The notes under the pieces are model-generated. The model was not told the origin of the DNA. It worked only from the letters and a program-made list of their open reading frames with translations, and did not search any database. A program made the translations under genes and the position numbers. From the NCBI GenBank assembly GCA_052139595.1, contig JBKQWK010000018.1, positions 1-62,205 of the forward strand: a stretch of DNA of 62,205 nt. The letters run 5' to 3'. Numbering within the stretch: the first letter of the stretch is position 1; each line of letters starts with the position of its first letter. This DNA is from Thermoleophilia bacterium. Its GTDB lineage: Bacteria; Actinomycetota; Thermoleophilia; UBA2241. Shown in pieces: positions 8,706-57,514 of this stretch.

Positions 8706-9550
8706 GGCGCGTCCAGCCCGTCGTTCAGACGAGGCACGGCATCGAGTTCGCCGATGGCAGCGGCGCGACGGTAGAACTCAAGAAGCCCCCGCCGGTACTC
8801 CGCCGTGAAGCCGAACTTGAGCTTGTCGAAATACTCCTCCAGGTAGGCGGCGCTGAAGTCGTAGAACTGCGCCGCCGCCGCCGCGGTCTCGCCTGGGCGA
8901 GCGGCACAGCGGTCACGCGAAGCCATGAGCGCCGCTTCAATCGCCCGCGCTTCATCCGGCCGCCGGTCGACAAAGGTTCGACGGGCAGCGCAGACCGCAT
9001 AGACCATCGGCAGTCCAGTGACAAGACGCCATTCCTCACCAAGATCGTACTGGTGCGGGTAGACGCCATCGCGCAGAATGTGCAGCGCCTCATCGCCAAT
9101 GAGCAGGAGGCCGCCAAAGTTGGCCAGCGTTTGCGCGAGAGGTCCTTGGCGCAGCGCAAACGAGGGCGCCAGATCCCACTCACGACAGAGCACCTTGAGC
9201 AGGCAGACCGTCGACGCACTCTTCTCGGTCAGCGCCACGCTGCCGAGCTGCTCACGCGACATCTGCGTGAACAGCTGGATCGAGTCGACGGCGCCGAACG
9301 AGCTGATGGAGATGCCCGGCAGGAGCGTGAGTTGCTCGGCATGGCGAGCGAACTCGATGGACGACGGTAGAGCCACGTCAATTTCGCCGTCAACGAGCAG
9401 GCGATTGAGTTGCGCCGGCGTACCGTCGACGATATCCGCCGCGAAACCAAGGCGAGCCAGCTCCTCCTCGAAGTGAGAGTACAGGGGAAAGCAGTTGACA
9501 AACTCGATGCGGCCCACTCGCGGGCGGGCCGCACGCCTATCCGTGCTCAC
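8702..9550 (-). CDS. MqnA/MqnD-family menaquinone biosynthesis protein (periplasmic-binding-like fold)
   Basis: RIEFVNCFPLY N-terminus and a length of ~280 aa. It is flanked by the two Mqn radical-SAM genes with 4-nt overlaps. Confidence 0.7.
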   Translation of the reverse strand: MSTDRRAARPRVGRIEFVNCFPLYSHFEEELARLGFAADIVDGTPAQLNRLLVDGEIDVALPSSIEFARHAEQLTLLPGISISSFGAVDSIQLFTQMSREQLGSVALTEKSASTVCLLKVLCREWDLAPSFALRQGPLAQTLANFGGLLLIGDEALHILRDGVYPHQYDLGEEWRLVTGLPMVYAVCAARRTFVDRRPDEARAIEAALMASRDRCAARPGETAAAAAQFYDFSAAYLEEYFDKLKFGFTAEYRRGLLEFYRRAAAIGELDAVPRLNDGLDAP

Positions 9551-10701
9551 GCCACCGCTCTGTCGTAGCGACGCACAACACCGTATAACGTGTCGCGCTC
9601 GACGGCGTTGCGGCCGGCCCCCTGGATCACACGCACGAGCTCCTCGCGGTCCAGCTCCTGACCGGTCTGCACACCGGCGGCGTGACTAATCTTTTCTTCG
9701 ACCACTGTACCATCAAGGTCGTTGACGCCGAACGCCAGTGACACCTGAGCCAGCTTGAGACCAACATTGATCCAGAACGCCTTCACGTGCTTGAAATTAT
9801 CGAGGACCAACCGACCGACCGAGAGCATCTTGAGGTCATCGTAGCCCGTCGGCCCAGGCAGCTCGCTGAGGCCCGTGTTGGCGGGCTGAAACGACAGCGG
9901 TATGAAGGCGTTGAAACCGCCCGTCTCATCCTGCAGCTCGCGCAAGCGCAGCAGGTGATCGGCCAGCTCAGCCGCCGTCTCGACATGGCCATAGAGCATG
10001 GTTGCGTTCGACTGCAGACCAACGCTGTGAGCGGCGCGCATGACATCGAGCCACCTCTGGCCGCTGATCTTGCGGTTGCAGATGAGATCGCGCACGCGGC
10101 CACTAAAAACCTCGGCCCCGCCGCCCGGCAGCGAGCCCAGACCCGCGTCTTTGAGTTCAGCCAGCACCATCGCAACCGGTTTGCCGGCGATTTTGGCAAA
10201 ATGGGCTATCTCGCTGGCCGTAAACGCCTGGATGTGCACGTCGGGCGCCAGTTGCTTGAGCGCACGCATCATCTCGAGGTAGTAGTCGAACGGCAGGCTG
10301 GGGTGCTCGCCGCCGACAATGTGGATCTCGGTAACGCCGCTGGTCAGCGACTCTCGCGCCTTATCGACAACTTCGTCAACCGAGAGCGTGTATGCACCAA
10401 CATCACCTTCGTCGTGGCTGAAGGCGCAGAAGAGGCAGCGATTACGACAGACGTTCGTGTGATTGATGTGGCGATTGGAAATGAAGTAAACATCGTCGCC
10501 GACCGCGCGTCGGCGCGCAAAATCGGCCATCGCGCCGAGAGCGAGGATGTCGTCCGAGCTAAGCAGGGCGACGGCGTCGCTTTCGCTCAGCCTGTCGCCG
10601 GAGAACACTTTGTCCCAGATGGGCGCGATGCCAGCCGAAGCCGCCAGCTCGGCGACGTGGTTTGCTTCCATGAAGTGAGCGCTCCTGCGCGCCTGCGGCA
10701 C
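9547..10701 (-). CDS. Radical SAM enzyme of the MqnE/MqnC family (aminofutalosine synthase or cyclic DHFL synthase)
   Basis: CRNRCLFCAF motif and GGGAEV motif; paralogous to 7626..8705. Start may be the internal MEANH (10671). Confidence 0.8.
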   Translation of the reverse strand: MPQARRSAHFMEANHVAELAASAGIAPIWDKVFSGDRLSESDAVALLSSDDILALGAMADFARRRAVGDDVYFISNRHINHTNVCRNRCLFCAFSHDEGDVGAYTLSVDEVVDKARESLTSGVTEIHIVGGEHPSLPFDYYLEMMRALKQLAPDVHIQAFTASEIAHFAKIAGKPVAMVLAELKDAGLGSLPGGGAEVFSGRVRDLICNRKISGQRWLDVMRAAHSVGLQSNATMLYGHVETAAELADHLLRLRELQDETGGFNAFIPLSFQPANTGLSELPGPTGYDDLKMLSVGRLVLDNFKHVKAFWINVGLKLAQVSLAFGVNDLDGTVVEEKISHAAGVQTGQELDREELVRVIQGAGRNAVERDTLYGVVRRYDRAVA

Positions 10702-10844: not shown

Positions 10845-11828
10845 TCAGCTGAAGCGCTCGACCACCCAGCCGGCGACGTCAGTGAGCAGTTCATGCTCCA
10901 CCAGGTCGCTACAAAGCGCGAGATGTTCGCGAGCCGTCGCGATCTGCTCGAGCGCCGCCGCACGCGCTCGCTCTATGGCACCACTGGCGACGATGTCGGC
11001 GATCACGGCAGCAACATCGGCTCCAGTAGCAAGTGGACCTTGCAAACGGACACCAAGATGAGGCATCGTCCTCAACGCCATGATGACCGGCAAGGTTACC
11101 GTGCCGTCACGCAAGTCCGTGCCCAAGCGCTTGCCGGTCTTTGCTTCGTCGCCGGTGAGATCAAGGATGTCGTCAAAAATCTGAAAGGCGAGACCGAGCG
11201 AGCGCCCGTAGGCAGCGAGCCCCTCGACATCACTCTCGTCGGCATTCGAAACGATGGCGCCCAGGCTACACGCAGCAGCGAAAAGGTCGGCGGTTTTCAA
11301 CTCGCAGCGACGCACGTAGTCGGCCGGCGAAAGATCCGTACGGTACGCCTCGTCCATCTGCAGTACCTCGCCGCGACTGAGTCCTTCTGCGACGCGACTA
11401 AGCAAGTCAACGACCCGTCCATCGCCGGATGCAACCAGTAACCCGAAGGCTTGGGCAAACAAGTAATTGCCGGCCGAGATCGCGAGCGGCACACCCATCT
11501 GGTGGGCAACCGTTGGCCGCCCGCGACGGAGGGCAGCTCCATCAAGCACGTCGTCGTGCACGAGCGTCGCCATGTGCAATAGCTCAACCGCAGCTGCGCC
11601 TCGATATGTAGCCGCAGAGAGCGTCCGATCACGACGCGCACTGAGCAGGACAAGCAGTGGACGGACCCGCTTGCCGCCGGCCGTCAACGTAACGGCACAG
11701 GCAGAGCCAAGTGTGCCAGGGCAATCACCGACGACCGTCTCAAGAAGCTCTTCGACGCGCTCGAGGCCACGTCGGTAGCGACGCTTTTGAGCGACCGAGC
11801 GCCAAGCAACGACGTCGGCCGGTTTCAT
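10845..11828 (-). CDS. Long-chain trans-polyprenyl diphosphate synthase (HepT/IspB-like)
   Basis: Two Asp-rich motifs, LVHDDVLD and FQIFDDILD. Sits directly after ubiE/menG, as in the Bacillus menH-hepT order. Confidence 0.85.
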   Translation of the reverse strand: MKPADVVAWRSVAQKRRYRRGLERVEELLETVVGDCPGTLGSACAVTLTAGGKRVRPLLVLLSARRDRTLSAATYRGAAAVELLHMATLVHDDVLDGAALRRGRPTVAHQMGVPLAISAGNYLFAQAFGLLVASGDGRVVDLLSRVAEGLSRGEVLQMDEAYRTDLSPADYVRRCELKTADLFAAACSLGAIVSNADESDVEGLAAYGRSLGLAFQIFDDILDLTGDEAKTGKRLGTDLRDGTVTLPVIMALRTMPHLGVRLQGPLATGADVAAVIADIVASGAIERARAAALEQIATAREHLALCSDLVEHELLTDVAGWVVERFS

Positions 11829-12595
11829 CGTGTCGCCTCGCCCCCGCCTGCTCCGCCGCGCGCCGGCACGCGACCGACGTGCAGGGCAATGATGCCCATG
11901 CCAAAACGTCGGTAACGCACTTGTCGCAGCCCGGCGGCAACCATGAGGTCCGCCAATACGTCAGCTCGAGGAAAAGCACGGACCGACGCCGGCAAATAAG
12001 AATAGGCCTTCAGATCACCGGCGATCAGGCCGCCCAGCAATGGGACGCAGCGGTCGAACCAGAGAGCGTGGAACCGACGGCCGAAGGCGCCCGACGGTTG
12101 AGTGATCTCGAGGATCACGACGCGACCACCAGATGCGGAAACACGCACCATCTCGCTCAATGCCAGCGGCAGATCAGATACATTACGCACCCCGAAAGCA
12201 ACGGTGACGGCACTGAACCGGCCGTTGGCGAATGGCAGCGCCAACAGGTCGCCGGCAACGAACTCAAGCGGAGCGCAACCATCGTCGGCCGCTACCTGCG
12301 CCTTGGCCCGGGCCAAGTCAAGCATGACGGCGCTGAAGTCGAGGCCAATAACCCCTGCCTGCGGATACCTTCGCGCCAGTGCCAAGGCAAGGTCGCCAGT
12401 GCCACAACAGACGTCCAGCGCCTGTTCGCCCGGACCCACGGCCGCCACGACCGCCGCCGCGCTGCGCCAGCGGCGGTCGAGCCCGGCCGTCATGAGCCGA
12501 TTCATGAAGTCGTAACGGCCAGCAATAGCGCTAAACATCGCCGCAATACGCCCAGGGTCTCGATCGACTCCGGCCCCACCGGCCTGCGCAATCAC
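11825..12595 (-). CDS. ubiE: Demethylmenaquinone / ubiquinone C-methyltransferase
   Basis: YDFMNRLMTAGLDRRWR signature and SAM motif LDVCCGTGD. Confidence 0.85.
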   Translation of the reverse strand: MIAQAGGAGVDRDPGRIAAMFSAIAGRYDFMNRLMTAGLDRRWRSAAAVVAAVGPGEQALDVCCGTGDLALALARRYPQAGVIGLDFSAVMLDLARAKAQVAADDGCAPLEFVAGDLLALPFANGRFSAVTVAFGVRNVSDLPLALSEMVRVSASGGRVVILEITQPSGAFGRRFHALWFDRCVPLLGGLIAGDLKAYSYLPASVRAFPRADVLADLMVAAGLRQVRYRRFGMGIIALHVGRVPARGGAGGGEATR

Positions 12596-13203
12596 GAAGC
12601 TGCACCCTCGTAAGTCGGGTACAGGTGCTGCGCAAAGCCAAGGCTCTGGAGAATCTTGCCGACAACGAAGTCGACGATGTCGGCGACTGTCTGTGGTCGA
12701 CCGTAGAAACCAGGTGCCGGAGGCAGGATCACGGCACCGGCTTCAGCGACATCGAGCAGCCGACGCAGGTGCACCGTCGAGAGCGGCATCTCGCGCGGCA
12801 CAAGAATCAGAGGCTTACGCTCCTTGAGAGCAACGTCAGCGGCGCGATGGATGAGATTGTGCCCCGCGCCCGTCGCAATGTGGGCAACGGTCGCCAGCGA
12901 GCAGGGGCAAATAACGGCGGCGTCCGGAAAGCTCGACCCACTGGCTGCGGAGCTCTCGAACTCGTCTGGATTGACGATAGCGACACTGCCAGCCCGCGCC
13001 CGCGTGAGAAATGCGTGCACCAACTCCTCACGTCCTTCGCCGGGCAAGGAAAGCTCGTGGCGCAAGACCAGCAGACCAGCGTCCGAGACGCACAGCGTGA
13101 GGTGGCAGCCAGCGCTAGTCAAGGCCTCAATCAGACGCAGCGCATACGCGGCGCCGCTGGCACCGGTAACGCCCAGAAACAGTGTCTGTGGCGGACTAGT
13201 CAT
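12592..13203 (-). CDS. ubiX: Flavin prenyltransferase UbiX family (MqnM-like in the futalosine context)
   Basis: LFLGVTGASGAAYALRLIEAL and MPLSTVHLRRLL motifs. ATG at 13203 chosen to avoid overlap with the upstream cytochrome gene. Confidence 0.85.
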   Translation of the reverse strand: MTSPPQTLFLGVTGASGAAYALRLIEALTSAGCHLTLCVSDAGLLVLRHELSLPGEGREELVHAFLTRARAGSVAIVNPDEFESSAASGSSFPDAAVICPCSLATVAHIATGAGHNLIHRAADVALKERKPLILVPREMPLSTVHLRRLLDVAEAGAVILPPAPGFYGRPQTVADIVDFVVGKILQSLGFAQHLYPTYEGAAS

Positions 13204-13244
13204 GGATTGCAGTCTACCACCGGCCGACGGCACGGCCGACGGCG

Positions 13245-14597
13245 TCACGGCGCGCTGGTAACCCCGTCGTGGTGGCAACTGCCGCCATAGCAGCCCGTGG
13301 GGCCAGAGCCCGCATTACCATGGCACTTGACGCAAATTGCACCATTGGCCAGGACTTCAGCAGGGTGATTGGCGATGAAGCTCGCTGGGTGCGGCAAGAC
13401 AACACCGTGACAGTCCGAACAGAAGGACGAGCTGTGACACTTGCTGCACAGGCCAGCGTTGTTGAGCGCGACCTGGCCATGTTGGGCAAGCCAATTGCTC
13501 GGATGCGGCATCGGCAACCCGTGGCAGCGCAGACAGCTGTTGGTGCCATGACACTTCACGCAGAGTGAGGGTGTCGCAGCACCGGCCTTCTCATGGCCAG
13601 TCGCGAGCCAGGTCGCAGGATGTGGCATTGCCAAGCCGTGACAACTGCTGCAGAACGTGGGGTCCTTCGCCTGATGGCACTTAACGCACGCGGTCTGACC
13701 GTGCTGCAGCGCATAGGCGCCGTGGGTACTGCTCCAGACGGCGGGATGGGGCATCTGCACGCCATTGTGGCACTTGCTGCAGAAGGAGGTCGAATGACAG
13801 CTCTGACAGTCCGTCGCGGTCAGATGAGTATTCATGGCAATGTGCACGGATCCCGGCGGAACACCATTGACATGGCAGATCGAGCACGTCTCCGGCTGAT
13901 TGACGCCGTTGTGACAGGTGACGCAGACCGACATGACATTAACCGTGGGCCGGGAACCAAACGCGCCGGTCGTGCCATGGGCGACACCATCATGGCAGGT
14001 AACGCATTGGAAACCTGCTGCCTGTAAACCGATGTGATTCACGATGATGCCATTGACAACGACATTCTTGTCGATCTGACTCGCGGGATGGCATTGTACG
14101 CAGCTCTCGGTGCTCACAGTCGTGCTCAGCGGCTTCTGGTAGTTACCGGAGATATAGCTGATGAGATTGGCAACGCCCTGCAGATTCTCAATGAAGTAGC
14201 GGAAAGCTCCCGGCTTCGTGTGACACGCGAGGCAACCAACACCCGCCTTATAGTGGGCGGACGTTTCATAACTCTTGACCTCTGGGGCAAGAAGATGGCA
14301 GGTGCCACACGTTGACGTGCGAGTAGCGACCGCAAAAGCCACTACGGAAACCACGATGATGACAACCAGGCCCGCCAAAACGCCCCACAACCAGCGCCGG
14401 GGAATAACGACGTCGACGAGCGACCGACGGCGCGGCGATTTGCCGCCACCGCTGGGAGCCGGTGTACCGCCGGCAGCACCGGCCCGGCCGCCGGCGCTCA
14501 ACGCTTCATCGCCGCCGCTCGGCGGCGACGCGTCGGCCGCGCCCTGCGACTCCGGCGGTTCGCCGGGACTCAACGGAGTCTTTTGCTCGTCAGTCAT
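13245..14597 (-). CDS. Membrane-anchored multiheme c-type cytochrome, 15 CXXCH (NapC/NirT-like N-terminus)
   Basis: Counted 15 CXXCH plus one CX4CH (CYGGSCH). A single N-terminal TM follows a Gly/Pro-rich tail. Diheme modules repeat, each ending in (M/L)PHP. Confidence 0.85.
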   Translation of the reverse strand: MTDEQKTPLSPGEPPESQGAADASPPSGGDEALSAGGRAGAAGGTPAPSGGGKSPRRRSLVDVVIPRRWLWGVLAGLVVIIVVSVVAFAVATRTSTCGTCHLLAPEVKSYETSAHYKAGVGCLACHTKPGAFRYFIENLQGVANLISYISGNYQKPLSTTVSTESCVQCHPASQIDKNVVVNGIIVNHIGLQAAGFQCVTCHDGVAHGTTGAFGSRPTVNVMSVCVTCHNGVNQPETCSICHVNGVPPGSVHIAMNTHLTATDCQSCHSTSFCSKCHNGVQMPHPAVWSSTHGAYALQHGQTACVKCHQAKDPTFCSSCHGLAMPHPATWLATGHEKAGAATPSLCVKCHGTNSCLRCHGLPMPHPSNWLAQHGQVALNNAGLCSKCHSSSFCSDCHGVVLPHPASFIANHPAEVLANGAICVKCHGNAGSGPTGCYGGSCHHDGVTSAP

Positions 14598-14600
14598 TTC

Positions 14601-15644
14601 TCAGAGCCCAGTTTGGCTCGGCGACGGAGACGGGCTGGGAGTCTGCGTGAAGAAACCATGCGCCGGAGGATTGCCGCTGGCGTGCTCTTCGTGACACGCC
14701 TGGCAGTTGGCCACGGAGTGACAGTTGAAGCATGTCTCATCGGATTTTGCCGCCGCAGCCGGATGCAGAGCGAGGAAATTGCTGGGATGTGGCATTGGCA
14801 CCTGGTGACAGGCGACGCAATACGTCTTCGTGTCATGACAGAGGCTGCATGCCTTCTCGCCCAGTTTTTTCTCGACAAGCCCGTGTTGTTCCAGCCAGTT
14901 CGCCGGGTGTGGCATGACGACACCGTTGTGGCACGAGGAGCAGGCAGTCGCACTTGTATGGCAGGCTGTACAGGTCGACAGAATCCCGTTCGTGCCGTGA
15001 GTCTTGAGCCACAACGCGGCGTTATCGTGTGAAGCGGGTTCGGCCGGCGGCTTGTTGACATGGCAGAGGCTACAGCGGCTAACCGCGACGGCCCCATTGG
15101 CTGCTTTGTAGTGGTTGTTGTGGCAGACCAGGCACTGATCCATAGTCGGTGAGGTCCGCGCACCCACCGGAACCGCGTTTCCGTGCGCCACAGCGGAGTG
15201 GCACTGGACGCACTGGTAGCCGGCTTGAATGAACTGTTGATGGTCGACCCTGATGGTGAGATGTATGTGATTCACGGTGACAACGTTCACGTCGACGGTT
15301 CGAAAGAGCTGCTTGTCGGTGTGGCAACGCTCACACGAAGCATTCACCACAGAACCGAGGATTGGCTTTTCATAGTCACCGGTCAGCTGCTGGATCGGTT
15401 CTTCCAGTGCCTCAAGTTTGGCCGTGAGGAAGAAGAATGGACCCGGCTGGGTATGGCACTCTTCGCAGTTGATGCCGGCATGTGGCGACTGCTCGAGAGC
15501 CTGCACCGTCGCCTTCATGTTGTGACAACTCGAGCAGAAGCTCGCCGACGACGTGCTTGTCAAGGCGAAGCCAAGTGCCACCACGACGGCCGTCACCACA
15601 ATCGTGATGACGATAAAGAAGCGTTTCGTAACGCGAATTGTCAC
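14601..15644 (-). CDS. Membrane-anchored multiheme c-type cytochrome, 12 CXXCH (NapC/NirT-like)
   Basis: An N-terminal TM helix is immediately followed by CSSCH. I counted 12 CXXCH. Paralogous to 13245..14597 and 18525..19526. Confidence 0.85.
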   Translation of the reverse strand: MTIRVTKRFFIVITIVVTAVVVALGFALTSTSSASFCSSCHNMKATVQALEQSPHAGINCEECHTQPGPFFFLTAKLEALEEPIQQLTGDYEKPILGSVVNASCERCHTDKQLFRTVDVNVVTVNHIHLTIRVDHQQFIQAGYQCVQCHSAVAHGNAVPVGARTSPTMDQCLVCHNNHYKAANGAVAVSRCSLCHVNKPPAEPASHDNAALWLKTHGTNGILSTCTACHTSATACSSCHNGVVMPHPANWLEQHGLVEKKLGEKACSLCHDTKTYCVACHQVPMPHPSNFLALHPAAAAKSDETCFNCHSVANCQACHEEHASGNPPAHGFFTQTPSPSPSPSQTGL

Positions 15645-15696
15645 GTACGCACGCCTCGCGCCATGATCTGCTGCTCGTGAAGCGAAATCAGCATGA

Positions 15697-16746
15697 TCAC
15701 AGCCCGCCGTTAAGTCCGCCGGGATAGGGATGCGTGTTGTGCACGGCGCTCAGATGACACAGCAGGCAGCTGTAACCGCCGGCGTGCTTTGCGGCACTGG
15801 AGTGACAGCGCAGGCAGGTACTCGTCGTCGGAATATTCATGCTCACACCGTGACAGGCGGTACACGCAGGCTTGACTGAGTCGTGATTTTGCATCCGTAC
15901 GGCGATCTTGCCGTTATGACAGACCGTACAGCTCGCCAGTGGAACCGCTTTCACGGTGCCATGGTGATAGCCGTTCACATTGGGATGACAGGTGATACAC
16001 GTGCCGAGATTCGTATAGTGGGCTTTGTGACAATCCGTGCACTTCGTATCTACTTTCGGCTTGGCGTTGTGGATAATCGCCGTGCCATGACAAGCCGGAT
16101 TGGTGCACGACAGCGGATTCGCCTTGCTGTAACCAATGTTGGTGTGGCACTTCAAGCACACGGCTGGCGTCGCAGGGATGTTCATGCCGCTGTGGCACGA
16201 CTGACAGGAGACACCGGCATGGGACACCTGAGCCACGGCATACTTGCCGTTATGACAGGTAGCGCAGGTCGGTGCTTTGAGGGTGACACCGCTGTGGTGC
16301 GGATCCCCACCGGGATTGGCAATAGACTGACTGACCGGGTGGCAGTCCGTGCAGGTTTTGCCATAACCGGACGCACCAAGGTGAGGTGAAGTGCCATGCG
16401 TGAATGGCGTGATGTAAAGCTTCAGGAGCGGATCCCAGAGATGGCACGTTGCTGAACAGCCGGCAGCCGTCTGGCCGGCAGATTGATCGGCACCCGGCTC
16501 ATGGCACTGCCAGCAGTTCTGCCCGGCAGCTACCTGATAGCCCGTGTGACAGCTCTGGCAATTGGTATCGGTCGGCGTTGAGCCTGAATGGCAATCGGAA
16601 CACTGCGTCGCGCCGTCGTGCGCCCACGTACTGAAAGCGTGTGCACTGCTTGCGCTGAAGGACAGTGCCGCACATGCGACAGCCAACGATGCTACCAATA
16701 CTGCGATCAGACGCTTTACGTCGTGCGATCCCACGTCGAGTCTCAC
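15697..16746 (-). CDS. Secreted multiheme c-type cytochrome, 13 CXXCH plus CX3CH and CX4CH variants
   Basis: Signal peptide ending SSAHA, 13 CXXCH, CSATCH and CTNPACH. No TM anchor. Confidence 0.85.
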   Translation of the reverse strand: MRLDVGSHDVKRLIAVLVASLAVACAALSFSASSAHAFSTWAHDGATQCSDCHSGSTPTDTNCQSCHTGYQVAAGQNCWQCHEPGADQSAGQTAAGCSATCHLWDPLLKLYITPFTHGTSPHLGASGYGKTCTDCHPVSQSIANPGGDPHHSGVTLKAPTCATCHNGKYAVAQVSHAGVSCQSCHSGMNIPATPAVCLKCHTNIGYSKANPLSCTNPACHGTAIIHNAKPKVDTKCTDCHKAHYTNLGTCITCHPNVNGYHHGTVKAVPLASCTVCHNGKIAVRMQNHDSVKPACTACHGVSMNIPTTSTCLRCHSSAAKHAGGYSCLLCHLSAVHNTHPYPGGLNGGL

Positions 16747-17645
16747 CCCCGCCCGGCAAACCAGGAGACTACGGACCAGACCATAAACACAGTCATTGCC
16801 ACCGCGGCCAGACCAGCAACCACAGTGATGGTATACCAGATACCATTCGTAACGTGAGTGCGCCAGGTGATGCGACGCTCGACCAGCACCTCGTCGAGAG
16901 TACCCTCGCGCACGCGTTTGGCGTACTCAAGCGGACGCTCTTCCATGTAGTGCTCGAGCGGGAGCGAGCCGGTGAAAATGACCTTGTCGATGGGAAACGC
17001 ACCCGGCTTGAGATGAGCACTAAAGAGATGCACGAAGATGAAAATCACGCCAGCGGCAAGCAGCGCTTCGTTGCCGTGGATGACGAGAGCGATATTGAGG
17101 AAAATGCCGGGCAGAATCCGAGTGGTGCCAATCGGGAACCACATCATGAACCCGGTGACGCCGATGATCACCGTGCCGGCTACGAGCGAGAGGAAGTCGA
17201 ACTTCTCCCAATACGTGAAGCGCGCAAACTGCGGCCTAGGACCGCGGCCGAAAAACCAGACGAACATGCCCTTGAGATCTTCCCAGTCCTTCTTGGTGGG
17301 CAAAATCGAGTCTTGGTTGAAGAGACCCCGACCGCGGCGCTTGAACACCAGGATGGACATGGCGACCATCTCCGCCGTCCAGTAGAAGACGGTAAACAGG
17401 GCGGCAATGCGATGGTAGACGCCGGCGGCCGTGACCCCGCCCATGGCGTTCATGACCCACATCGCCCAACCGCTGTCTTTGTACTTCAAGGGCATACCCG
17501 TAAACACGAGTACGGTGAAGCTGACGAAGACAATGATGTGCATCCACCGATGAAAAGCACCGAAGCGCTTGTACTCGACGCTCACGCGTGCCGTGGTGGG
17601 CACAGTCGCGTCCTGACCGATGTTAGTAATCGTCTCGTCACTCAT
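16743..17645 (-). CDS. Integral-membrane b-type cytochrome subunit (FdnI/HydC/PhsC-like, Ni/Fe-hydrogenase b-cytochrome family)
   Basis: Multi-TM protein with conserved His in helices (HRWMH, YHRIAA, VIHGNEA, FVHLFSAH). ATG at 17645 lies 2 nt after the stop of the upstream heptaheme gene. Confidence 0.7.
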   Translation of the reverse strand: MSDETITNIGQDATVPTTARVSVEYKRFGAFHRWMHIIVFVSFTVLVFTGMPLKYKDSGWAMWVMNAMGGVTAAGVYHRIAALFTVFYWTAEMVAMSILVFKRRGRGLFNQDSILPTKKDWEDLKGMFVWFFGRGPRPQFARFTYWEKFDFLSLVAGTVIIGVTGFMMWFPIGTTRILPGIFLNIALVIHGNEALLAAGVIFIFVHLFSAHLKPGAFPIDKVIFTGSLPLEHYMEERPLEYAKRVREGTLDEVLVERRITWRTHVTNGIWYTITVVAGLAAVAMTVFMVWSVVSWFAGRG

Positions 17646-18528
17646 GATGTTTCCTGTAGCCACCAGACTTGATGCCGCGGTAAATGTACAGGACCGTGTG
17701 CACCCCACCAAACGTGAAGACCGTAGCGATAAGGACAGTGTATGCAAGCCAGACTAAGAACACGACGAGCGACGAGCGCGGACTACTCGGATCGATGTGA
17801 ATGCGATAGCCAGTGAAGTTTGCGTTGGCACTGGGATGGCACTTGCGGCAAGTCGTGAGGATGTTCTGCTTGCTGATCGTGCTCGCCGGATTCGACGGCG
17901 GCAGAATTTTGTGGCCGCCGTGGCAGTCGATACAGACTGCTGCTTCCGTTTTGCCAAGCACAAACGCCTGGCCGTGATATTCGTTGAGGTAGGAGGCCTC
18001 GGCAGCCGGATGACAACGACCACACATCGTCAGCGATTGTTTGCGGTACGCCAGGCTGGCGACGTTCACTGTGTCGTGCGCGTCGTGGCAGTCGGCGCAC
18101 CGCGGCGCCTTGGTCGAGTTCTCCTTGAGTACAAGCGTGCCGTGAAACGAACCCTTGTACATGGAAAACTCGCTGGCGTGACAGTACGAGCACGAGGTGA
18201 GCTTGGCCATCTCGAGCCAGCCGGAGGTCTCGGCGGCGGTGTGCTTGTCGGCCCTGAAGCCAATGTGGCAACTCGTGCAGTCGAGTTCGCCGTGGAGCGA
18301 TGAGTTGTACACGGCCGCGTTCACATAGATGCTTTTCTTGACCCCGTTGACCATAATCATCGTCTTCTTGGCACTCTGCACACCGTGACAGGCTAAACAC
18401 GCCTGATTCTGCGTTGCCGGCGTAAGCGCCTGTGCATGCGCCGGCGCAGCGAAGAAGAGACCGGCGGCGCAGACACCGGCAACGACGAGCAAGACAATAC
18501 CAGCGATGATGATGCGTGCTCTACTCAC
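17638..18528 (-). CDS. Heptaheme c-type cytochrome with signal peptide and C-terminal TM anchor
   Basis: 7 CXXCH counted, signal peptide ending APAHA, hydrophobic C-terminal helix. Adjacent to the b-type cytochrome. Confidence 0.85.
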   Translation of the reverse strand: MSRARIIIAGIVLLVVAGVCAAGLFFAAPAHAQALTPATQNQACLACHGVQSAKKTMIMVNGVKKSIYVNAAVYNSSLHGELDCTSCHIGFRADKHTAAETSGWLEMAKLTSCSYCHASEFSMYKGSFHGTLVLKENSTKAPRCADCHDAHDTVNVASLAYRKQSLTMCGRCHPAAEASYLNEYHGQAFVLGKTEAAVCIDCHGGHKILPPSNPASTISKQNILTTCRKCHPSANANFTGYRIHIDPSSPRSSLVVFLVWLAYTVLIATVFTFGGVHTVLYIYRGIKSGGYRKHHE

Positions 18529-19526
18529 GGCGTGATCCCCATCTTGCTATGACAGGCATCGCAGTACGACTGCTGATGGCAGACCAAGCACGACGCGCTG
18601 TTCTGGACGGCCACCGGCCCATGCGTGGTCACCCAATTCGCCGGATGATTCACTTGGTGGCACTTTTGGCAGAAGGTCTGGTAGTTGTGACAGCCGAGAC
18701 ACGAGGCTGGATCAGCCTTGGCTGGACCGGCGTGCGTATAGCTCCACGTACCGCTGAAGTGGTCAGCCGGTGGCTTGGCGTGACAAGCACCGCAAAATGC
18801 GGCCTCGTCGTGATGACATGTCAGACAGCTGGCCGGATTGGCAAGCGCCTGCTTGCCGTGCAGCGCGATGTAGTTGGCGGGATGGACGTTCTTCGGTGGC
18901 GGCGTTGTATGACAGAACGAACACTGGTTCTGCTGAATCTGCTGGCTGTGACACATGGAGCAGATGGTCATGGAAACTGTCGTCGCTTGCCCAGGCTTGG
19001 CGTGCGACACCTCGTTGTGACAGTCGACACACGTCAGGTTGGCCAGATTCAGGTGAATCTGGTGCGAGAAGCGAATATCGGTCTGCGAGGGGCCCAGATT
19101 CTTCACGTTGTGACAGCTCGTACAGTTGGCGTTCGAGGGCAGCTGCTGTTTGGCTGATACGTTCGTCATATCCAAGTACGTGGCCCAAATGTTGACCCAC
19201 TCTTTGGTACGCCACTTGATCGACGCGAACAGGCCCGGAGGGACGTGACAGCTGACGCAGGCGACGTTGGCGTGCACAGAGTGCTCCAACGTCGCCTGGT
19301 AGGGCTTCATCTGGTGGCAGCTCGCGCAGTAGGACGTCGACGAGGTGAGGTGCACCGGCACATAGACGACGACCGCAACGACCAGGACTGCCGCCAGAAC
19401 AGCAACAATGATGAACCAGGTTGAGCGATACCAGGGCTTATGCTGCGCACCAGCCTTCTGGCTTGACGAATCGTCGCTCACTCGATAATCCCCTGTGGCT
19501 CCTCGTACCGACTGATGAACCGGCAT
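18525..19526 (-). CDS. Membrane-anchored multiheme c-type cytochrome, 12 CXXCH (NapC/NirT-like)
   Basis: TM helix then CASCH; 12 CXXCH. ATG at 19526 is preferred over the GTG at 19577, because the extra CAGCH would lie on the cytoplasmic side. Confidence 0.8.
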   Translation of the reverse strand: MPVHQSVRGATGDYRVSDDSSSQKAGAQHKPWYRSTWFIIVAVLAAVLVVAVVVYVPVHLTSSTSYCASCHQMKPYQATLEHSVHANVACVSCHVPPGLFASIKWRTKEWVNIWATYLDMTNVSAKQQLPSNANCTSCHNVKNLGPSQTDIRFSHQIHLNLANLTCVDCHNEVSHAKPGQATTVSMTICSMCHSQQIQQNQCSFCHTTPPPKNVHPANYIALHGKQALANPASCLTCHHDEAAFCGACHAKPPADHFSGTWSYTHAGPAKADPASCLGCHNYQTFCQKCHQVNHPANWVTTHGPVAVQNSASCLVCHQQSYCDACHSKMGITP

Positions 19527-19701
19527 CCCCAGAACTCTGTGCCGAAACCGGTTGTGACAGCCGGCACATTGTACCACGAAGGGTATTCGTCGGCGACAAC
19601 TTCATTCCTACCCCAGGATCCTCCGACGGCAAGCCAACATCGACCAGCTACGGCTTGGCTTGAAGAGGGGCGATAGCAACCGCCGTCTGCGTCAGGACGC
19701 G

Positions 19702-20583
19702 TCAGGCAAGCAGCGCCGCGACAACCGCCACGACGCCATACAGAATGCCTACCACACTGTTGGTCGTCATGAAGCTCATGCCAACGCGGTCCAGACCGCG
19801 ACGGGCGATGTCGATGTTTGACCAGGCCAAGAGGGCGACGACCACAGTCATGCCGGCGAAGTACGCCACGGGCAAGTGCAGCAAGCCGCCGACGATAAAC
19901 AGCAACGCCAGCGCGGCCAGATGTGACAGCGCCGCGACCCGCAGAGCGCCCCGCTCGCCGAGGCTGACCGGGATCGAGTGGATGCCCTCGCGACGGTCGA
20001 CGTCGAGGTCGAAGATGGCATAGATGATGTCGAAACCACCGATCCACAGACCGACGGCAAGAAACAGGAGCACAGGTGGCCATGAGATGTGGCCGCTCAC
20101 CGCAAGCCATGCCGCTGCAGGAGCGAGCCCGTCGGTCAGGCCAAGGCCGTAGTGGCAGAAAGCAGTGAAACGTTTCAGATAGGGATACAAGACGAAGGCC
20201 AACACCGGGATCGGCCACAGGTACCGACAGGGGTGTGAGAGGTTGAAGGCGGCGAGCACGAGAACGGCCACGGATGCCAGCGTGAACAGAATCACTTCGC
20301 CGCGACGCAGGCGGCCTGCCGGCAGCTCACGCGCCGCCGTGCGCGGATTGCGCGCATCGATCTCGGCGTCGATGAGACGGTTAAGCGCCATCGCCGCGCT
20401 GCGGGCACCGATCATGGCAACGGTAATCCAGATGAGGTTGGTCCAGCCAGGCCAGCCGGGGCGAGCCAGAAAAGCACCGGCGTACGCGAACGGCAGAGCA
20501 AAAACGCTGTGCTCAACCTTTATCAGACGTGCGAACAGGCCGGGCTTAGCCACCAGCCCGGCGGCCGCAGGCGAAACCGACAT
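19702..20583 (-). CDS. ubiA: UbiA-family aromatic prenyltransferase (MqnP-like)
   Basis: NRLIDAEIDARNPRTAARELPAG Asp-rich motif and ~8 TM helices. ATG at 20583. Confidence 0.85.
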   Translation of the reverse strand: MSVSPAAAGLVAKPGLFARLIKVEHSVFALPFAYAGAFLARPGWPGWTNLIWITVAMIGARSAAMALNRLIDAEIDARNPRTAARELPAGRLRRGEVILFTLASVAVLVLAAFNLSHPCRYLWPIPVLAFVLYPYLKRFTAFCHYGLGLTDGLAPAAAWLAVSGHISWPPVLLFLAVGLWIGGFDIIYAIFDLDVDRREGIHSIPVSLGERGALRVAALSHLAALALLFIVGGLLHLPVAYFAGMTVVVALLAWSNIDIARRGLDRVGMSFMTTNSVVGILYGVVAVVAALLA

Positions 20584-20597
20584 GAAAAAGGCGGTCG

Positions 20598-20825
20598 CTA
20601 CTCGGCTGGTTCGCGGCCAAAGCGTGCCACGACGAAACCAGCGATGCCGACGAGTACGGCAAAGGCGCCGATAACAAAGATGATGGAGTAGAGAAGCATG
20701 CTTTCCGGTCGAGATCCGCCAAGGTAGGCACTGACTGACCAGGTGATGACGGCCAGCGCCCAATTGGCGATGGACAAGATCCAGAAGCGTCGTGCAACGT
20801 GGTATCTGTGAGTTTCAGCCATCAA
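20598..20825 (-). CDS. Small two-TM membrane protein, unknown function
   Basis: 75-aa ORF with two hydrophobic helices. It fills the gap between the UbiD- and UbiA-like genes on the same strand. Confidence 0.4.
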   Translation of the reverse strand: MMAETHRYHVARRFWILSIANWALAVITWSVSAYLGGSRPESMLLYSIIFVIGAFAVLVGIAGFVVARFGREPAE

Positions 20826-20879: not shown

Positions 20880-22304
20880 TTACGAGAACGGCAGGTCGAA
20901 TTCTCCCCAACGTGCCGTAACACGAGCAACGACGCCAGGGTCCATGACAAGTTCGTCGGGCCACTCGCGTGCGTGTCCCTCTGCCGGCCAGGTCTTGGTG
21001 GCATCGATACCCATTTTGCCGCCGTACCGCGCCGTCGGGCTGGAATGGTCAAGAACATCGAGCGGACCATCAACGATGAGGCAGTCACGTCGCGGGTCAA
21101 CATTGTTGAACACGCGCCACATGACCTCGCTGTAATCGTGCACATTCACATGCTCATCGACGACGACGATGAACTTCGTGAACATCATCTGTCCCATGCC
21201 CCACACGGCGCTCATGATCTTGCGCGCCTGGCCGGGGTAGACCTTTCTGATGCTGATGATGGCGCAGTCGTGAAAGACACCCTCGATGGGCAGATCCATA
21301 TCGACAATCTCGGGCTGTACGAGGCGCAGCAGCGGCAGAAAGAGCCGCTCCGTCGCCTTGCCCAGATATGCGTCCTCCATCGGTGGCTTGCCAACGATCG
21401 TCGCCGGATAGATCGCGTCGGGCCGCATGCTCATGTGCGTCAGGTGAAACACCGGGTACTCGTCGGCCAAGGAGTAATAGCCGGTGTGATCCCCGAACGG
21501 TCCTTCGCGGCGCAGCTCACCTTTTTGTACGTACCCTTCGAGCACAATCTCAGCCTCGGCGGGCACGTCGAGGTCGACGGTCGCGCAGTGGACCACGTCA
21601 ACCGGCTCGCCGCGCAGAAAGCCGGCAAACATGAGTTCATCGATTCCTGGCGGTAGAGGCGCCGTCGCTGCATAGGTGACAACGGGATCGGTGCCGAGCG
21701 CAACAGCGACTTCAAGGCGATCGCCGGCAGCGCGAAAGTTGGCGGCACCATCGTGATGCAGATGCCAATGCATGCCGGTCGTCCGTTCGTCGTGAACCTG
21801 CAGGCGATACATGCCGGCGTTGCGCCGACCGTGAGCGTCCTTTGTGAAAACGACGGGCAAGGTGATGAACGGTCCGCCATCCGCTGGCCACGTGGTGAGA
21901 ACGGGCAAGCGACTCAAGTCCGGCGGGTTAACCGGAACACTCTGCCAAGCGGCCTTCTTTGCTGTCCGCGGTGAGTAAGAGGCAAGCTCGCGAAGCTGGC
22001 TGAGCGCTTTGACTTTACCGACGAGGCCACTGGGCACTTGCAGATCAAACAGACGAGCGATTCGCTCTGCGACCTCGTCCAGCGGAGATCCCAAAGCCAG
22101 CTCAAGGCGCCGCATCGATCCGAACTGATTCATGAGCACCGGCAGTTCGCTGCCCTTTGCCCGGGCAAAGTACAGTGCCGGGCCATGGGCCTTGCTCGCC
22201 CGATCCGCGATCTCGGCCATTTCAAAACGCGGATCGACAGCGGCAGTTATGTTGGCAAGCTCGCCCTCGCGGGCCAGAAGTTCAACGAACGCGTGCAGAT
22301 CCAT
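20880..22304 (-). CDS. ubiD: UbiD-family (prFMN-dependent) decarboxylase, menaquinone-type (MqnL-like)
   Basis: 474 aa with typical UbiD blocks (GPFGDHTGYY, MSAVWGMGQMMFTKFIVVVDEHVNVHD). Confidence 0.9.
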   Translation of the reverse strand: MDLHAFVELLAREGELANITAAVDPRFEMAEIADRASKAHGPALYFARAKGSELPVLMNQFGSMRRLELALGSPLDEVAERIARLFDLQVPSGLVGKVKALSQLRELASYSPRTAKKAAWQSVPVNPPDLSRLPVLTTWPADGGPFITLPVVFTKDAHGRRNAGMYRLQVHDERTTGMHWHLHHDGAANFRAAGDRLEVAVALGTDPVVTYAATAPLPPGIDELMFAGFLRGEPVDVVHCATVDLDVPAEAEIVLEGYVQKGELRREGPFGDHTGYYSLADEYPVFHLTHMSMRPDAIYPATIVGKPPMEDAYLGKATERLFLPLLRLVQPEIVDMDLPIEGVFHDCAIISIRKVYPGQARKIMSAVWGMGQMMFTKFIVVVDEHVNVHDYSEVMWRVFNNVDPRRDCLIVDGPLDVLDHSSPTARYGGKMGIDATKTWPAEGHAREWPDELVMDPGVVARVTARWGEFDLPFS

Positions 22305-22906
22305 CAGGCGGCACCGGCCACGCTGGCGCGCAGCCAGAGATCGGGGCCAATGGTGTCACCACGGAGAAAGGCGGCCAGTGGTCGCCGATCGCTAACTGCC
22401 AACTCGCGCACGCAGGTGCGCGCGGCCTGCGCCAGTGCCGTCGAACTGCCGTCGACGAGTTCGTGAACATGCGCAAACAGCGCCAGAGCGGGGCCGACGG
22501 CAGCACCGGCACGCAGGGCGCCGATGGCGGCCACGGTGACGACCCAGAGGTCGTCATCGTGGCTGAACGGCGCCTCGACTGCACGCAAGCAGGCGCACGA
22601 CGCCATGAGCCGCGCGAGCAGGTCGACGGCGGCAATATCGTGTCGACCCGCAACCAGGCGCAAACCACGTGCATAGAAGAAATCACCAGCCAGCAGGCTC
22701 ATCTCGCGACTCGCGGAGCGCAGCAGACGACCATGACGATAGTGCAGCAGGTAGCCCTCGTGGATGAGTTCGAAGGCCAGCGCGTCGTCAACGGCTGCCG
22801 GCGCCAGGGCGACAAGCAGCGGTCCGTACAGCAGCGGCACGGCGCCGGTGACTGCCGGCGCGGCCACCTGCAGGTCAGTGGCCGCTGCCGCTAGACCTGC
22901 CTGCAA
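22304..22906 (-). CDS. Hypothetical protein, possibly a degenerate polyprenyl-synthase-like (HepS-like) subunit
   Basis: ORF 22304..23122 overlaps rex by ~200 nt, so a TTG at 22906 (8 nt after the rex stop) is proposed as the start. FELIHEGYLLHY and LLAGDFFYARG resemble trans-IPPS helices but lack the DDxxD motif. Confidence 0.35.
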   Translation of the reverse strand: MQAGLAAAATDLQVAAPAVTGAVPLLYGPLLVALAPAAVDDALAFELIHEGYLLHYRHGRLLRSASREMSLLAGDFFYARGLRLVAGRHDIAAVDLLARLMASCACLRAVEAPFSHDDDLWVVTVAAIGALRAGAAVGPALALFAHVHELVDGSSTALAQAARTCVRELAVSDRRPLAAFLRGDTIGPDLWLRASVAGAA

Positions 22907-22913
22907 TGACTCG

Positions 22914-23567
22914 TCAGCTACGCTGCTCACATTCCGTGCCCAGATAGAACGAGAGGAACATGAGTTCGCTGGAAAGGTCAACCTGGCGCAGAACGACCTC
23001 TTTGGGCGTGGAGACTCGCACTGGCGCGAAGTTGAGAATCGCCTTGACACCGGCAGCAACGATACGGTCGATCGTCGCCTGGGCGGCATGCGCCGGCACC
23101 GTGACCATGGCGATGTCGACATGCTGCGTGGTACAGAATTCTTCTAGCTCGGTGATGCTGCGCACGCGGCCAGAGCCGTAACTAGCGCCGATCACCCGCG
23201 CCGAACTGTCGAACATGGCCACCAGACGGTAGCCCTGCTCGCTGAAGCCGCGGTAGCGGGCCAGAGCGGTGCCAAGCAGGCCAGCGCCGATAATGGCCAC
23301 GTTCCAGGTCGTGTTGAGGCCCAGGCGACACGTGATCTCCTCGATAAGGCGCGGTATCTCGTAGCCGACGCCGCGCGTGCCAAACTCACCGAAGTACGAG
23401 AAATCCTTGCGGATCTGCGCCGCGTTGAGATCGATCATCTCGGCCAGATCTTTGCTCGAGATCCTCTCGGTCCCGTGCGCATTCAACTCGCGCAGCTTGC
23501 GCAGGTACAGGGCCAAGCGGGGAACGGTCACCGTGGGGACACTGTTCTTGTCGATGTTGCGCGCCAT
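22914..23567 (-). CDS. rex: Redox-sensing transcriptional repressor Rex
   Basis: RLALYLRKLREL wHTH, RKDFSYFGEFGTRGVGY, Rossmann motif IIGAGLLG. Confidence 0.9.
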   Translation of the reverse strand: MARNIDKNSVPTVTVPRLALYLRKLRELNAHGTERISSKDLAEMIDLNAAQIRKDFSYFGEFGTRGVGYEIPRLIEEITCRLGLNTTWNVAIIGAGLLGTALARYRGFSEQGYRLVAMFDSSARVIGASYGSGRVRSITELEEFCTTQHVDIAMVTVPAHAAQATIDRIVAAGVKAILNFAPVRVSTPKEVVLRQVDLSSELMFLSFYLGTECEQRS

Positions 23568-23581
23568 ACGCTTCCCCCAGC

Positions 23582-24880
<1,299 letters not shown>

Positions 24881-25054
24881 CAGAGCAGCCGCTGTTGCTC
24901 GTACATAATACTTGCATCGCGGCGAGAACGGGTGGAGAACCGGTGCAAGTGATCACAAGTGCGCTCACACGCCGTTCAGCGCGACCCGCCCCGAAGGCAA
25001 CTCTCACCCTCGACTTCAGGGTCAGCGCTACCATTGTCCTGACGCCGGTTGCGC

Positions 25055-26191: not shown

Positions 26192-26347
26192 GCGAATCCG
26201 TTTCAGGTTGAGGTGGTCAAAGACGCAAATAAACAATGCCTTACTAGTGAAAATATGGACAAAGTATGACGTGGCCAGGCAGGCGCTGCAAGAACAGGAC
26301 CGTTAGGAGCCCTCATCATGCCGTCGCCGCAGCCGCCCGCCGACGCC

Positions 26348-27319: not shown

Positions 27320-27546
27320 TCGGTTGGATCCTTTCGTAGGACGGAGTCGTCGCTGCAGTAGTTCTGCCCGCAATCTACTCCTGCCAGAGCGACCGAGGCA
27401 AGACGTGTGGCGCAGCGGCCACACGGAGCAACGGTATAGCAGTGGCGCGGTAGCCACGCACGGCGGCGGCAGCGGCAGCCGGCGACGACCGCCGCCCGAC
27501 ATGTGAGAGCACGCCCGGCCGTCACGGCAGCGGCGTATCGTCGGCT

Positions 27547-37026: not shown

Positions 37027-37030
37027 CCTC

Positions 37031-57263: not shown

Positions 57264-57514
57264 ATCGTATGCCTCCCGCTTCTTATTGTCCGGCTGGCTT
57301 GGCAAAGTACCTGGATCGCCTCTTCGCAACGTCCGGGTGGTTCTTACAGTGCGGCACTCCGAGCAGGCGGTAGTGGTTGGGTGGCTGATCCTAGGGTGGG
57401 ATCGAGAGCCAGCGGTAATACGAGTCAAAAGCCTTCATCTGATCGCCCCTTCTCGCTTGCACGCCTGAACTTCTCCGGATCGAGAGACCGATCTCCCGTG
57501 TCGTGCTGCTGCCG

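Follow-up and report, generated by a model that had tools for sequence, protein, structure and literature searches.

CbcL (GSU0274) of Geobacter sulfurreducens is a bc-type inner-membrane menaquinol oxidase that serves low-potential extracellular acceptors and is needed to reduce those below about -0.1 V. In the Geobacter papers it is described as a single polypeptide with a signal peptide, a periplasmic c domain (residues 30-279, nine hemes) and six transmembrane (TM) helices holding two b hemes, with one histidine in each of TM1-3 and two in TM5. CbcL reduces PpcA (PMC9129911). The CbcBA pair (GSU0593-0594) consists of a seven-heme c subunit with a C-terminal anchor and the b subunit CbcB, which has four TM helices and three ligand histidines and is described as lacking sequence homology to CbcL. 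In the flavin-based extracellular electron transfer system (FLEET) of Listeria and Lactiplantibacillus, quinone genes for the DmkA prenyltransferase and the DmkB polyprenyl synthase are found together with the machinery for extracellular electron transfer (EET) (PMC9888254). Here, a DNA stretch of 62,205 nucleotides (nt) from a Thermoleophilia bacterium (lineage UBA2241; assembly GCA_052139595.1, contig JBKQWK010000018.1), hereafter the window, was analysed with a focus on six cytochrome genes that lie inside a menaquinone-biosynthesis operon. With moderate confidence, and from sequence comparison, the six genes are interpreted as a branched menaquinol-oxidising multiheme network in the cytoplasmic membrane that would feed extracytoplasmic or extracellular acceptors.

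Gene layout and the CbcL-type module

Six co-directional open reading frames (ORFs) were located on the minus strand at 13245-19481, between the UbiA-like gene mqnP/ubiA and the UbiX-like gene ubiX, as a preliminary description of this DNA had placed them. In gene order they are as follows (aa, amino acids).

18525-19481, minus strand: cA, membrane-anchored NrfH/NapC-headed 12-heme cytochrome, 318 aa (longest ORF to 19577)
17638-18528, minus strand: cB, signal peptide, 7-heme c domain and C-terminal TM helix with His277
16743-17645, minus strand: cytb, 5-TM diheme b-type cytochrome, 300 aa, homologue of the CbcL membrane domain (PF01292)
15697-16746, minus strand: cC, soluble secreted cytochrome; 13 CXXCH plus one invariant CX3CH and a possible CX4CH
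14601-15644, minus strand: cD, membrane-anchored NrfH/NapC-headed 12-heme cytochrome with a Pro/Ser-rich C-terminal tail (PF03264)
13245-14597, minus strand: cE, membrane-anchored NapC-headed 15-heme cytochrome with a low-complexity cytoplasmic N-terminus of about 65 aa (PF03264)

The ORF translations contained 13, 7, 0, 13, 12 and 15 CXXCH motifs, respectively. When the gap between ubiA and the cytochrome genes was aligned for 20 related loci, the start of cA was conserved as GTGAGYGA (GTG at 19481) behind a GGGGGA ribosome-binding site. The thirteenth motif of the cA ORF is codon 4 of the longest ORF and lies upstream of this conserved start; cA therefore has 12 motifs, and the five c-type genes together have 12+7+13+12+15 = 59, the number given in the preliminary description. 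Across the whole window, two or more CXXCH were present only in these five ORFs, and 60 of the 64 CXXCH of all six reading frames (124,406 codons) fell in them, a concentration that excludes chance.

The Pfam scores for PF03264 and PF01292, given below, and a hydropathy scan agreed with the domain and topology assignments made earlier. By the hydropathy scan, cA, cD and cE each have one N-terminal TM helix and cytb has five, cB combines a Sec signal peptide with a TM helix at its C-terminus, and cC has a cleavable signal peptide. Adjacent genes overlap at cA/cB (4 nt), cB/cytb (8 nt) and cytb/cC (4 nt), and are separated by 52 nt at cC/cD and by 3 nt at cD/cE. For each heme, the c-type proteins have 22-32 residues and two or more His. 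These values are comparable to those of CbcL, PpcA and GSU1996 (PMC9129911), and as sequence features they fit pure electron-transfer cytochromes. All six genes encode cytochromes and no beta-barrel porin gene is among them, so that the cluster is not of the Mtr/Pcc porin-cytochrome kind; models for DmsE/MtrA-type and MtrC-type proteins gave weak matches below cut-off.

The cytb protein scored 35.2 bits against PF01292 ('prokaryotic cytochrome b561'; cut-off 30.1) and possesses the four transmembrane histidines of an FdnI/HydC-type diheme cytochrome b. These residues, H36 (TM1), H78 (TM2) and H190 and H206 (TM4), were invariant in 112 homologues from many phyla. Among 114 homologues of cB, all seven CXXCH were present in at least 97%, and the anchor-helix His277 in 88%. 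Placed end to end, cB and cytb give six helices and five histidines, matching the layout of CbcL. Fragments of G. sulfurreducens CbcL matched cytb by BLASTP with an E-value of 4e-15 (32% identity over 139 aa), and the motifs GxPLK and RGPxPxFxRxxYWEKFDF (including YWEKFDF) are common to both. Natural cB::cytb fusions were also found in close relatives, namely in P0115 and in a subgroup of related loci (L010-L018, L020, L024 and L030). On the basis of the layout, the fragment homology and these fusions, cB and cytb are read as a split seven-heme CbcL homologue.

CbcL and the cB-cytb pair have in common a signal peptide followed by an outward multiheme c domain, and neither has an iron-sulfur, flavin or molybdopterin partner. 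They differ in that CbcL is one polypeptide with nine c hemes from the Desulfuromonadia, whereas the module described here is divided between two genes (fused in some relatives), has seven c hemes, and is actinobacterial and situated in a menaquinone operon beside three NapC-type cytochromes. The pair shares with CbcBA the c gene in first position, a seven-heme c subunit, a His-bearing C-terminal anchor and a separate diheme b subunit; however, with its five helices and its own four invariant histidines, cytb departs from CbcB (four helices, three histidines) and matches CbcL. The earlier comparison with the Cbc-type modules of Geobacter could thus be made more precise: the gene layout only resembles that of CbcBA, and by its sequence the pair is classed as a split, shorter CbcL homologue.

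A function of cytb as the gamma subunit of formate dehydrogenase was rejected, since TIGR01583 gave 24.2 bits (cut-off 115.85) and neither dehydrogenase nor hydrogenase genes lie close by. In sequence searches of the PDB, the sole match of cB was 28pb_A ('Cytochrome c', E 7.6e-8), and cytb had no match. An AlphaFold2 model of cytb from 17 sequences was too poor for use (predicted local distance difference test, pLDDT, 57.2), and its best Foldseek match in the PDB (E 0.74) was meaningless.

NapC-headed cytochromes and the secreted cytochrome

The three anchored proteins scored above the cut-off of the NapC/NirT family PF03264 (cA 57.5, cD 46.3 and cE 42.3 bits; cut-off 24.1). The cA protein matched the NrfH structure 2j7a_C with an E-value of 4e-11 (5e-10 with the family profile), in an alignment that spans the TM helix and hemes 1-4 with heme motifs one-to-one. 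The three proteins are paralogues with 31-33% identity, in which all 12 shared heme motifs align, and cE has three extra C-terminal hemes. At heme 1, cA (CASCHQM) and cD (CSSCHNM) carry the NrfH-type motif CxxCHxM; cE has CGTCHLL, without the Met. It is thus precisely at the heme adjoining the quinol site that the heads of cA, cD and cE differ. In most cD orthologues (alignment A3) this motif is CxxCKSH, in which Lys replaces the canonical His and a His stands where NrfH has its Met ligand, so that a ligand-capable residue is kept; it is an unusual variant of the quinol-site heme.

Scores for the narrower models were much lower (TIGR03153, 44-56 bits against a cut-off of 134.2; NapC and TorC models, far below their cut-offs). 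Because of these sub-equivalog scores and the lack of a partner enzyme, cA, cD and cE are regarded as members of the family and not as subunits of nitrite, nitrate or trimethylamine N-oxide reductases. They share with NrfH, CymA, NapC and ImcH the single N-terminal TM helix, the four heme motifs and, in cA and cD, the CxxCHxM heme 1. They differ from them in carrying 8-11 extra hemes as diheme repeats, in the absence of an NrfA-like or other catalytic partner from the cluster, and in being three paralogues with dissimilar heme-1 motifs in one operon.

Beyond heme 4, the chains continue as repeated units some 40 residues long, each bearing a pair of CXXCH and the signature PHP..W...H (pattern C..CH-x5-9-C..CH...PHP..W...H), with four to five and a half diheme repeats per head. 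A tail-only HMMER search of the full library returned 1015 representative proteins, 372 of them at E<=1e-10. In sampled members, a NapC-like head precedes as many as 32 hemes (P0332, 32; P0333, 30). Another protein, P0396 (975 aa), joins a seven-heme c domain, a 6-TM CbcL-like b domain and an 18-heme diheme-repeat tail in one chain, and CbcL-like and NapC-headed genes co-occur in several other phyla; both observations argue for a joint function of the CbcL-like module and the NapC-headed wires. The cE protein had no match in the PDB sequence search, and the AlphaFold2 model of cD (30-sequence alignment) was too poor to use (mean pLDDT 52.7).

The soluble cytochrome cC has a conserved signal-peptidase site between AHA and F, and no conserved lipobox cysteine, sortase or S-layer homology (SLH) sequence or other recognisable wall or lipid anchor was found in it. 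An invariant CX3CH (C97-C101-H102) accompanies its 13 CXXCH, so that cC would bind at least 14 hemes. Its family comprises 90 members of 248-610 aa; the few with a named source are almost all from actinobacterial metagenome-assembled genomes (MAGs), and one is labelled Deltaproteobacteria. It is also the fastest-evolving protein of the cluster (30-45% identity among related loci). The match to the c7-type triheme 'nanowire' domain TIGR04257 was weak (29 bits, below the cut-off of 40), as was that to the closest solved relative, 3oue_A (E 0.004), which we take to be part of GSU1996, a periplasmic cytochrome of Geobacter. Like the periplasmic poly-c7 and triheme cytochromes GSU1996 and PpcA, cC is soluble and secreted with about 22 residues per heme; it differs from them in scoring below the family cut-offs and in the variable length of its family. 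Judged by these sequence features, cC may be a relay, a store or a terminal reductase.

The preliminary description had named close homology to a characterised periplasmic reductase system as evidence that would tell against an outward conduit. No such homology emerged: among the proteins of the window, no NrfA, HAO or OTR model came near its cut-off, and neither a molybdoenzyme partner nor a CXXCK motif was found. Neither a reductase gene nor any other catalytic respiratory subunit accompanied the cluster, be it in the window or in the 10-kb surroundings of the related loci with listed genes (L001, L002, L083 and L084), and genes for NrfA, NapAB and TorA were missing from both. These observations bear on the main rival explanation, which we consider unlikely: a hub of the periplasm or wall space, similar to CymA, NapC or TorC, that would deliver menaquinol electrons to soluble reductases for nitrite, N- or S-oxides, sulfur compounds or fumarate encoded elsewhere, so that nothing would leave the cell. 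Such a hub would suit the membership of cA, cD and cE in the NapC/NirT family, whose characterised members mostly serve periplasmic reductases, and the only weak likeness of the unanchored cC to periplasmic poly-c7 cytochromes, and a reductase could lie beyond the 62 kb that the window covers. However, besides the missing reductase gene, a homology census of the other loci showed only heme, menaquinone and cytochrome genes around the cluster. The 59-60 hemes and four quinol-oxidising modules far exceed the usual hub proteins (4-5 hemes), genetic evidence from Geobacter links the CbcL relative to extracellular acceptors, and a tail family that reaches at least 30 hemes is hard to explain for a short periplasmic hand-off.

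Embedding in the menaquinone operon and its control

The genes that flank the cytochrome cluster on the same strand were identified as follows.

23582-27502, minus strand: hemL, AhbD heme b synthase (siroheme-dependent pathway; 515.8 bits, cut-off 500) and hemB
20880-22304, minus strand: mqnL/ubiD menaquinone-biosynthesis decarboxylase (TIGR03701, 609.9 bits, cut-off 495.9)
19702-20580, minus strand: mqnP/ubiA prenyltransferase, upstream flank of the cluster (TIGR01475, 271.7 bits, cut-off 180.8)
19568-19586, minus strand: promoter-like or operator-like motif ATACCC-N4-TGGTACAAT; ATACCCTTCGTGGTACAAT at 19586-19568
12592-13248, minus strand: ubiX flavin prenyltransferase (TIGR00421, 172.4 bits, cut-off 108.9)
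11825-12595, minus strand: ubiE/menG
10845-11828, minus strand: hepT (HepT-like polyprenyl synthase)
9547-10701, minus strand: mqnE (496 bits, cut-off 434.55)
8702-9550, minus strand: mqnA-like gene (orthologue carries PF02621)
7626-8705, minus strand: mqnC (475.1 bits, cut-off 428.1)

MqnE, MqnC and the MqnL-type UbiD scored above the NCBIfam equivalog cut-offs, which identifies a futalosine-pathway operon; for mqnP/ubiA, the MqnP models gave 256-282 bits, below their cut-offs. The start of ubiX is either a GTG that overlaps the cE stop codon (GTGA) or ATG 13204, which leaves a gap of at most 40 nt. Immediately upstream of rex and the mqn/cytochrome genes, and in the same orientation, are the genes hemL, AhbD and hemB, an order also present in L001 and L083, and about 20 kb of one strand are thus devoted to heme synthesis, quinone synthesis and heme proteins. 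In the window and the annotated related loci, the flanks contained only heme- and menaquinone-synthesis genes.

Several further ORFs were noted within or beside these flanks. Between ubiD and ubiA, a small ORF (20598-20825, minus strand, about 75 aa, two predicted TM helices, no family assignment) is conserved in L001 (6879-7106) and L084 (288-512) and may encode a membrane component of the menaquinone operon. An ORF between rex and ubiD (22304-22930, minus strand, about 208 aa) had no Pfam or NCBIfam match; gene calls for it exist in L001 (201 aa) and L083 (208 aa) as well. A DUF4388/PatA_N protein (27547-28827, minus strand), which adjoins hemB and is also found at the edge of L083, matched an MshE-type cyclic di-GMP-binding motif weakly (35.9 bits, cut-off 38).

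Hundreds of close relatives of cytb were found in metagenomes, and 570 relatives in a scan of one genome per prokaryotic species. Of the 23 loci nearest to the window (65-74% identity), nearly all bear the label of uncultured Thermoleophilia, UBA2241 among them. When the window proteins were mapped onto the fetched loci, the cytochrome genes adjoined mqn genes in all 23 of these species-level loci. The commonest order was ubiD-ubiA-[cA cB cytb cC cD cE]-ubiX-ubiE-hepT-mqnE-mqnA-mqnC, which was also found on contigs from an exact protein look-up. In the subgroup with fused cB::cytb, the fusion gene and an orthologous cA lie between ubiD and ubiA, and a paralogous bc module follows ubiA. The cytochrome module is duplicated in L002, L009 and L023; between the duplicated modules there is a gene for a 1026-aa BNR/YCF48-like beta-propeller repeat protein (L002 4881-7961; PF14870, E 2e-103), which is absent from the window and may be a surface or assembly partner. 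Six loci with Gaiellales or Actinomycetota labels (L025-L029 and L031; b-cytochrome 51-57% identical) have a homologous cluster and no mqn genes within 10 kb. In one of them (L029 4768-5424), a PetB/QcrB-like cytochrome b/b6 (PF00033, E 9e-52) is encoded a few kilobases upstream of the cluster. Among the related loci, the cytochromes have diverged to 35-60% identity, compared with 60-86% for the mqn proteins. From the embedding in all 23 loci, the rearrangement within the operon and the mqn-free sister loci, the linkage is concluded to be lineage-specific, old and maintained. An ancestral adjacency of ubiA and ubiX was assumed from the Streptomyces numbering SCO4490-4492 in NCBIfam model names.

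It is very improbable, in our estimate, that this co-location is functionally neutral, that is, that a mobile cytochrome cluster landed once in the operon and was then simply inherited. A neutral insertion would agree with the mqn-free sister group, with the promoter-like element that the cluster possesses and with its slightly lower GC content (0.58-0.60, against 0.61-0.64 in the flanks). It would not account for an embedding that was kept in 23 of 23 species-level genomes while the cytochromes diverged so far, and that survived a move of the bc module from downstream to upstream of ubiA, still within the operon. Moreover, ubiX begins 0-40 nt past the last cytochrome gene, so that ubiX, ubiE and hepT depend on transcription through the cluster.

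The promoter-like element lies in a 220-nt non-coding gap (19482-19701) between ubiA and the cytochrome cluster. In the form ATACCC-N4-TGGTAnAAT it had a single zero-mismatch match in the window, with no other close match there, and it occurred exactly in 18 related loci, once per locus and approximately in the ubiA-to-cytochrome gap where this could be checked. Two copies, each before a NapC-like cytochrome gene, were found in L002 and L009, and the motif was absent from the non-mqn actinobacterial loci examined (L025 and L027). The part TGGTACAAT resembles a textbook extended -10 element (TGnTACAAT) and would be of the sigma-70 type, unlike the sigma-54/BccR control of CbcBA, and an inverted repeat, TACC-N6-GGTA, suggests an overlapping operator. 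A Rex-like site, ATGTGCCGGCTGTCACAA (19552-19569, minus strand; 10 of 14 positions), directly downstream of the -10 element was rejected as a probable chance match because it is not conserved in other loci. The Rex consensus TTGTGAA-N4-TTCACAA, searched with up to three mismatches, gave one hit in the window, no more than expected by chance and away from the cluster. Generic scans for sigma-70 promoters and for terminators did not exceed shuffled sequence, and Rfam and tRNA scans found nothing.

Because the cE stop and the ubiX start are 0-40 nt apart and ubiX, ubiE and hepT overlap or abut, these menaquinone genes are taken to be transcribed through the cytochrome cluster, and their co-regulation with the cytochromes is likely. 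In contrast, ubiD and ubiA may be regulated separately, since the conserved promoter-like element follows ubiA. The earlier proposal that the embedding implies co-regulation of carrier and oxidase is accordingly kept for ubiX-ubiE-hepT and is less secure for the two upstream genes. The embedding had also been called unusual; it is real and conserved, but FLEET already joins dmkA and dmkB with EET genes. FLEET and the present cluster have in common that quinone synthesis and quinone-to-outside electron machinery share one locus. However, FLEET uses Ndh2, EetA/B and the flavoprotein PplA and contains no cytochromes, whereas the carriers described here hold about 60 hemes, and its quinone genes are dedicated extra copies, whereas those of the window appear to form the main futalosine-pathway operon. 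A role of the cytochromes as oxidant source for the maturation of the UbiD/UbiX cofactor was set aside, because the c-heme domains face outwards and UbiD and UbiX are cytoplasmic.

Proposed electron flow and its possible physiological meaning

In the network that we favour, menaquinol would be oxidised at up to four sites, one of the CbcL type and three of the NrfH type. Electrons entering through cytb would cross two b hemes (H36, H78, H190 and H206, with a fifth His in the cB anchor helix) and pass into the seven bis-His c hemes of cB at the outer face. Each of cA, cD and cE would combine a single TM helix with a head of four hemes, in which a special heme 1 would lie beside the quinol site, and the diheme-repeat extensions would make these proteins anchored 12-15-heme wires projecting from the membrane. 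Along the tails and cC (as relay, store or terminal reductase), electrons would then reach an acceptor outside the cytoplasmic membrane. By analogy with ImcH, CbcL and CbcBA in Geobacter, the four quinol entry points may be tuned to different potentials. The conserved promoter would drive the cluster, and the same transcript would read into ubiX-ubiE-hepT, so that the synthesis of the electron carrier would be coupled to that of its oxidases. The analysis itself established which genes are present, their topology, the patterns of hemes and histidines, the homology to CbcL and NrfH, and how well the arrangement and the motif are conserved; the direction of electron flow, the identity of the acceptor, the protein contacts and the promoter activity are all inferred.

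Because no catalytic subunit accompanies the cluster, its likeliest role would be anaerobic respiration with extracytoplasmic or extracellular acceptors, for example Fe(III), Mn(IV), humic substances or a partner cell. This uncultured host belongs to the actinobacterial class Thermoleophilia, and its relatives are MAGs named for soils, lakes and sediments; for the order UBA2241, anoxic hypolimnia and permafrost are the only recorded habitats (PMC7438021). In a FeGenie survey, CbcL homologues together with surface multiheme cytochromes were reported from 8 of 19 Thermoleophilia MAGs (bioRxiv 10.1101/2022.03.26.485925). The proposed network fits both the multi-oxidase logic of Geobacter and the anoxic habitats of this lineage.

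Several points weigh against this interpretation. The proteins of the cluster and of the lineage were read from their sequences, the comparison with CbcL used noisy fragments damaged by optical character recognition from a supplementary alignment instead of the full sequence, and the view of the genome is one 62-kb window. With models of such low confidence (pLDDT 52.7 and 57.2), the linear-wire geometry is deduced from motif spacing alone. No component is demonstrably surface-exposed, and cC has neither a sortase or SLH signal nor a lipobox. For a diderm cell, the locus would lack an outer-membrane conduit. The NapC/CymA-type proteins of other organisms serve soluble periplasmic reductases from distant loci. 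Multiheme chains are reversible, and the direction of flow cannot be read from sequence. For these reasons, the menaquinol-to-outside conduit of the preliminary description is plausible, while its terminal, surface-exposed step is identified by nothing in the locus. The term 'monoderm-like' used there for the neighbouring genes would fit an actinobacterial class.

The reversibility of multiheme chains and of NapC/CymA-type proteins also bears on operation in the opposite sense, in which Fe(II), reduced humic substances, a cathode or a syntrophic partner would supply extracellular electrons to the menaquinone pool. Homologues of the bc module do occur in MAGs labelled Burkholderiales, Rubrivivax and Aquincola, lineages of a type that includes Fe(II) oxidisers. 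We nevertheless regard this reverse operation as quite improbable: at neutral pH, electron transfer from Fe(II) to the low-potential menaquinone runs thermodynamically uphill, CbcL as the closest characterised relative is a menaquinol oxidase directed towards low-potential acceptors, and the cluster contains no oxidation marker of the Cyc2 or MtoA type. Both this reversal and a neutral co-location are less likely than the outward-directed network.

More tentatively, cA, cD and cE may represent the short end of a widespread and undescribed class of heme wires headed by quinol dehydrogenases, with tails from 12 to more than 30 hemes. Together with the CbcL-type module, such wires might provide a self-sufficient, porin-free route through the wall of monoderm (or thin-walled) bacteria, one that in anaerobic Thermoleophilia would be genetically locked to the synthesis of its own quinone. 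In the literature searched (Thermoleophilia, UBA2241, futalosine, multiheme and CbcL), no description was found of this gene set, its insertion in a futalosine operon, the conserved control motif or the NapC-headed diheme-repeat family. Already known are the CbcL homologues in Thermoleophilia MAGs and the FLEET precedent for quinone and EET genes together.

Elsewhere in the window, a defence-like island of five co-directional genes (34075-44617, minus strand) encodes two helicases, one carrying a restriction-endonuclease domain (983 aa) and one of the SNF2 type (1084 aa), a 650-aa protein that combines a GmrSD N-terminal domain with a DNA methylase domain, a DUF4391 protein and a DUF4062/HATPase_c_4 protein. 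A 1221-aa protein with a C-terminal FGE-sulfatase (formylglycine-generating-enzyme-like) domain is encoded at 53763-57428 (minus strand), and an arylsulfotransferase-family protein at 30939-32528 (plus strand).

The Thermoleophilia in culture are considered obligately aerobic, yet uncultured orders, UBA2241 among them, are frequent inhabitants of anoxic lake water, peat, soils and sediments. With its roughly 60 hemes and four quinol entry points, a conserved module of this kind would give UBA2241-type bacteria a concrete form of anaerobic respiration, with iron, manganese and humic substances as likely acceptors, and would extend cytochrome-based extracellular electron transfer to a poorly known actinobacterial class. 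The cluster would also be a compact, single-operon test bed for several quinol oxidases that share one quinone pool. The menaquinone linkage and the 19-nt control element offer testable handles for regulation, and the diheme-repeat tail family (about 1000 representative clusters, without a solved structure) is a candidate for a new heme-wire building block.

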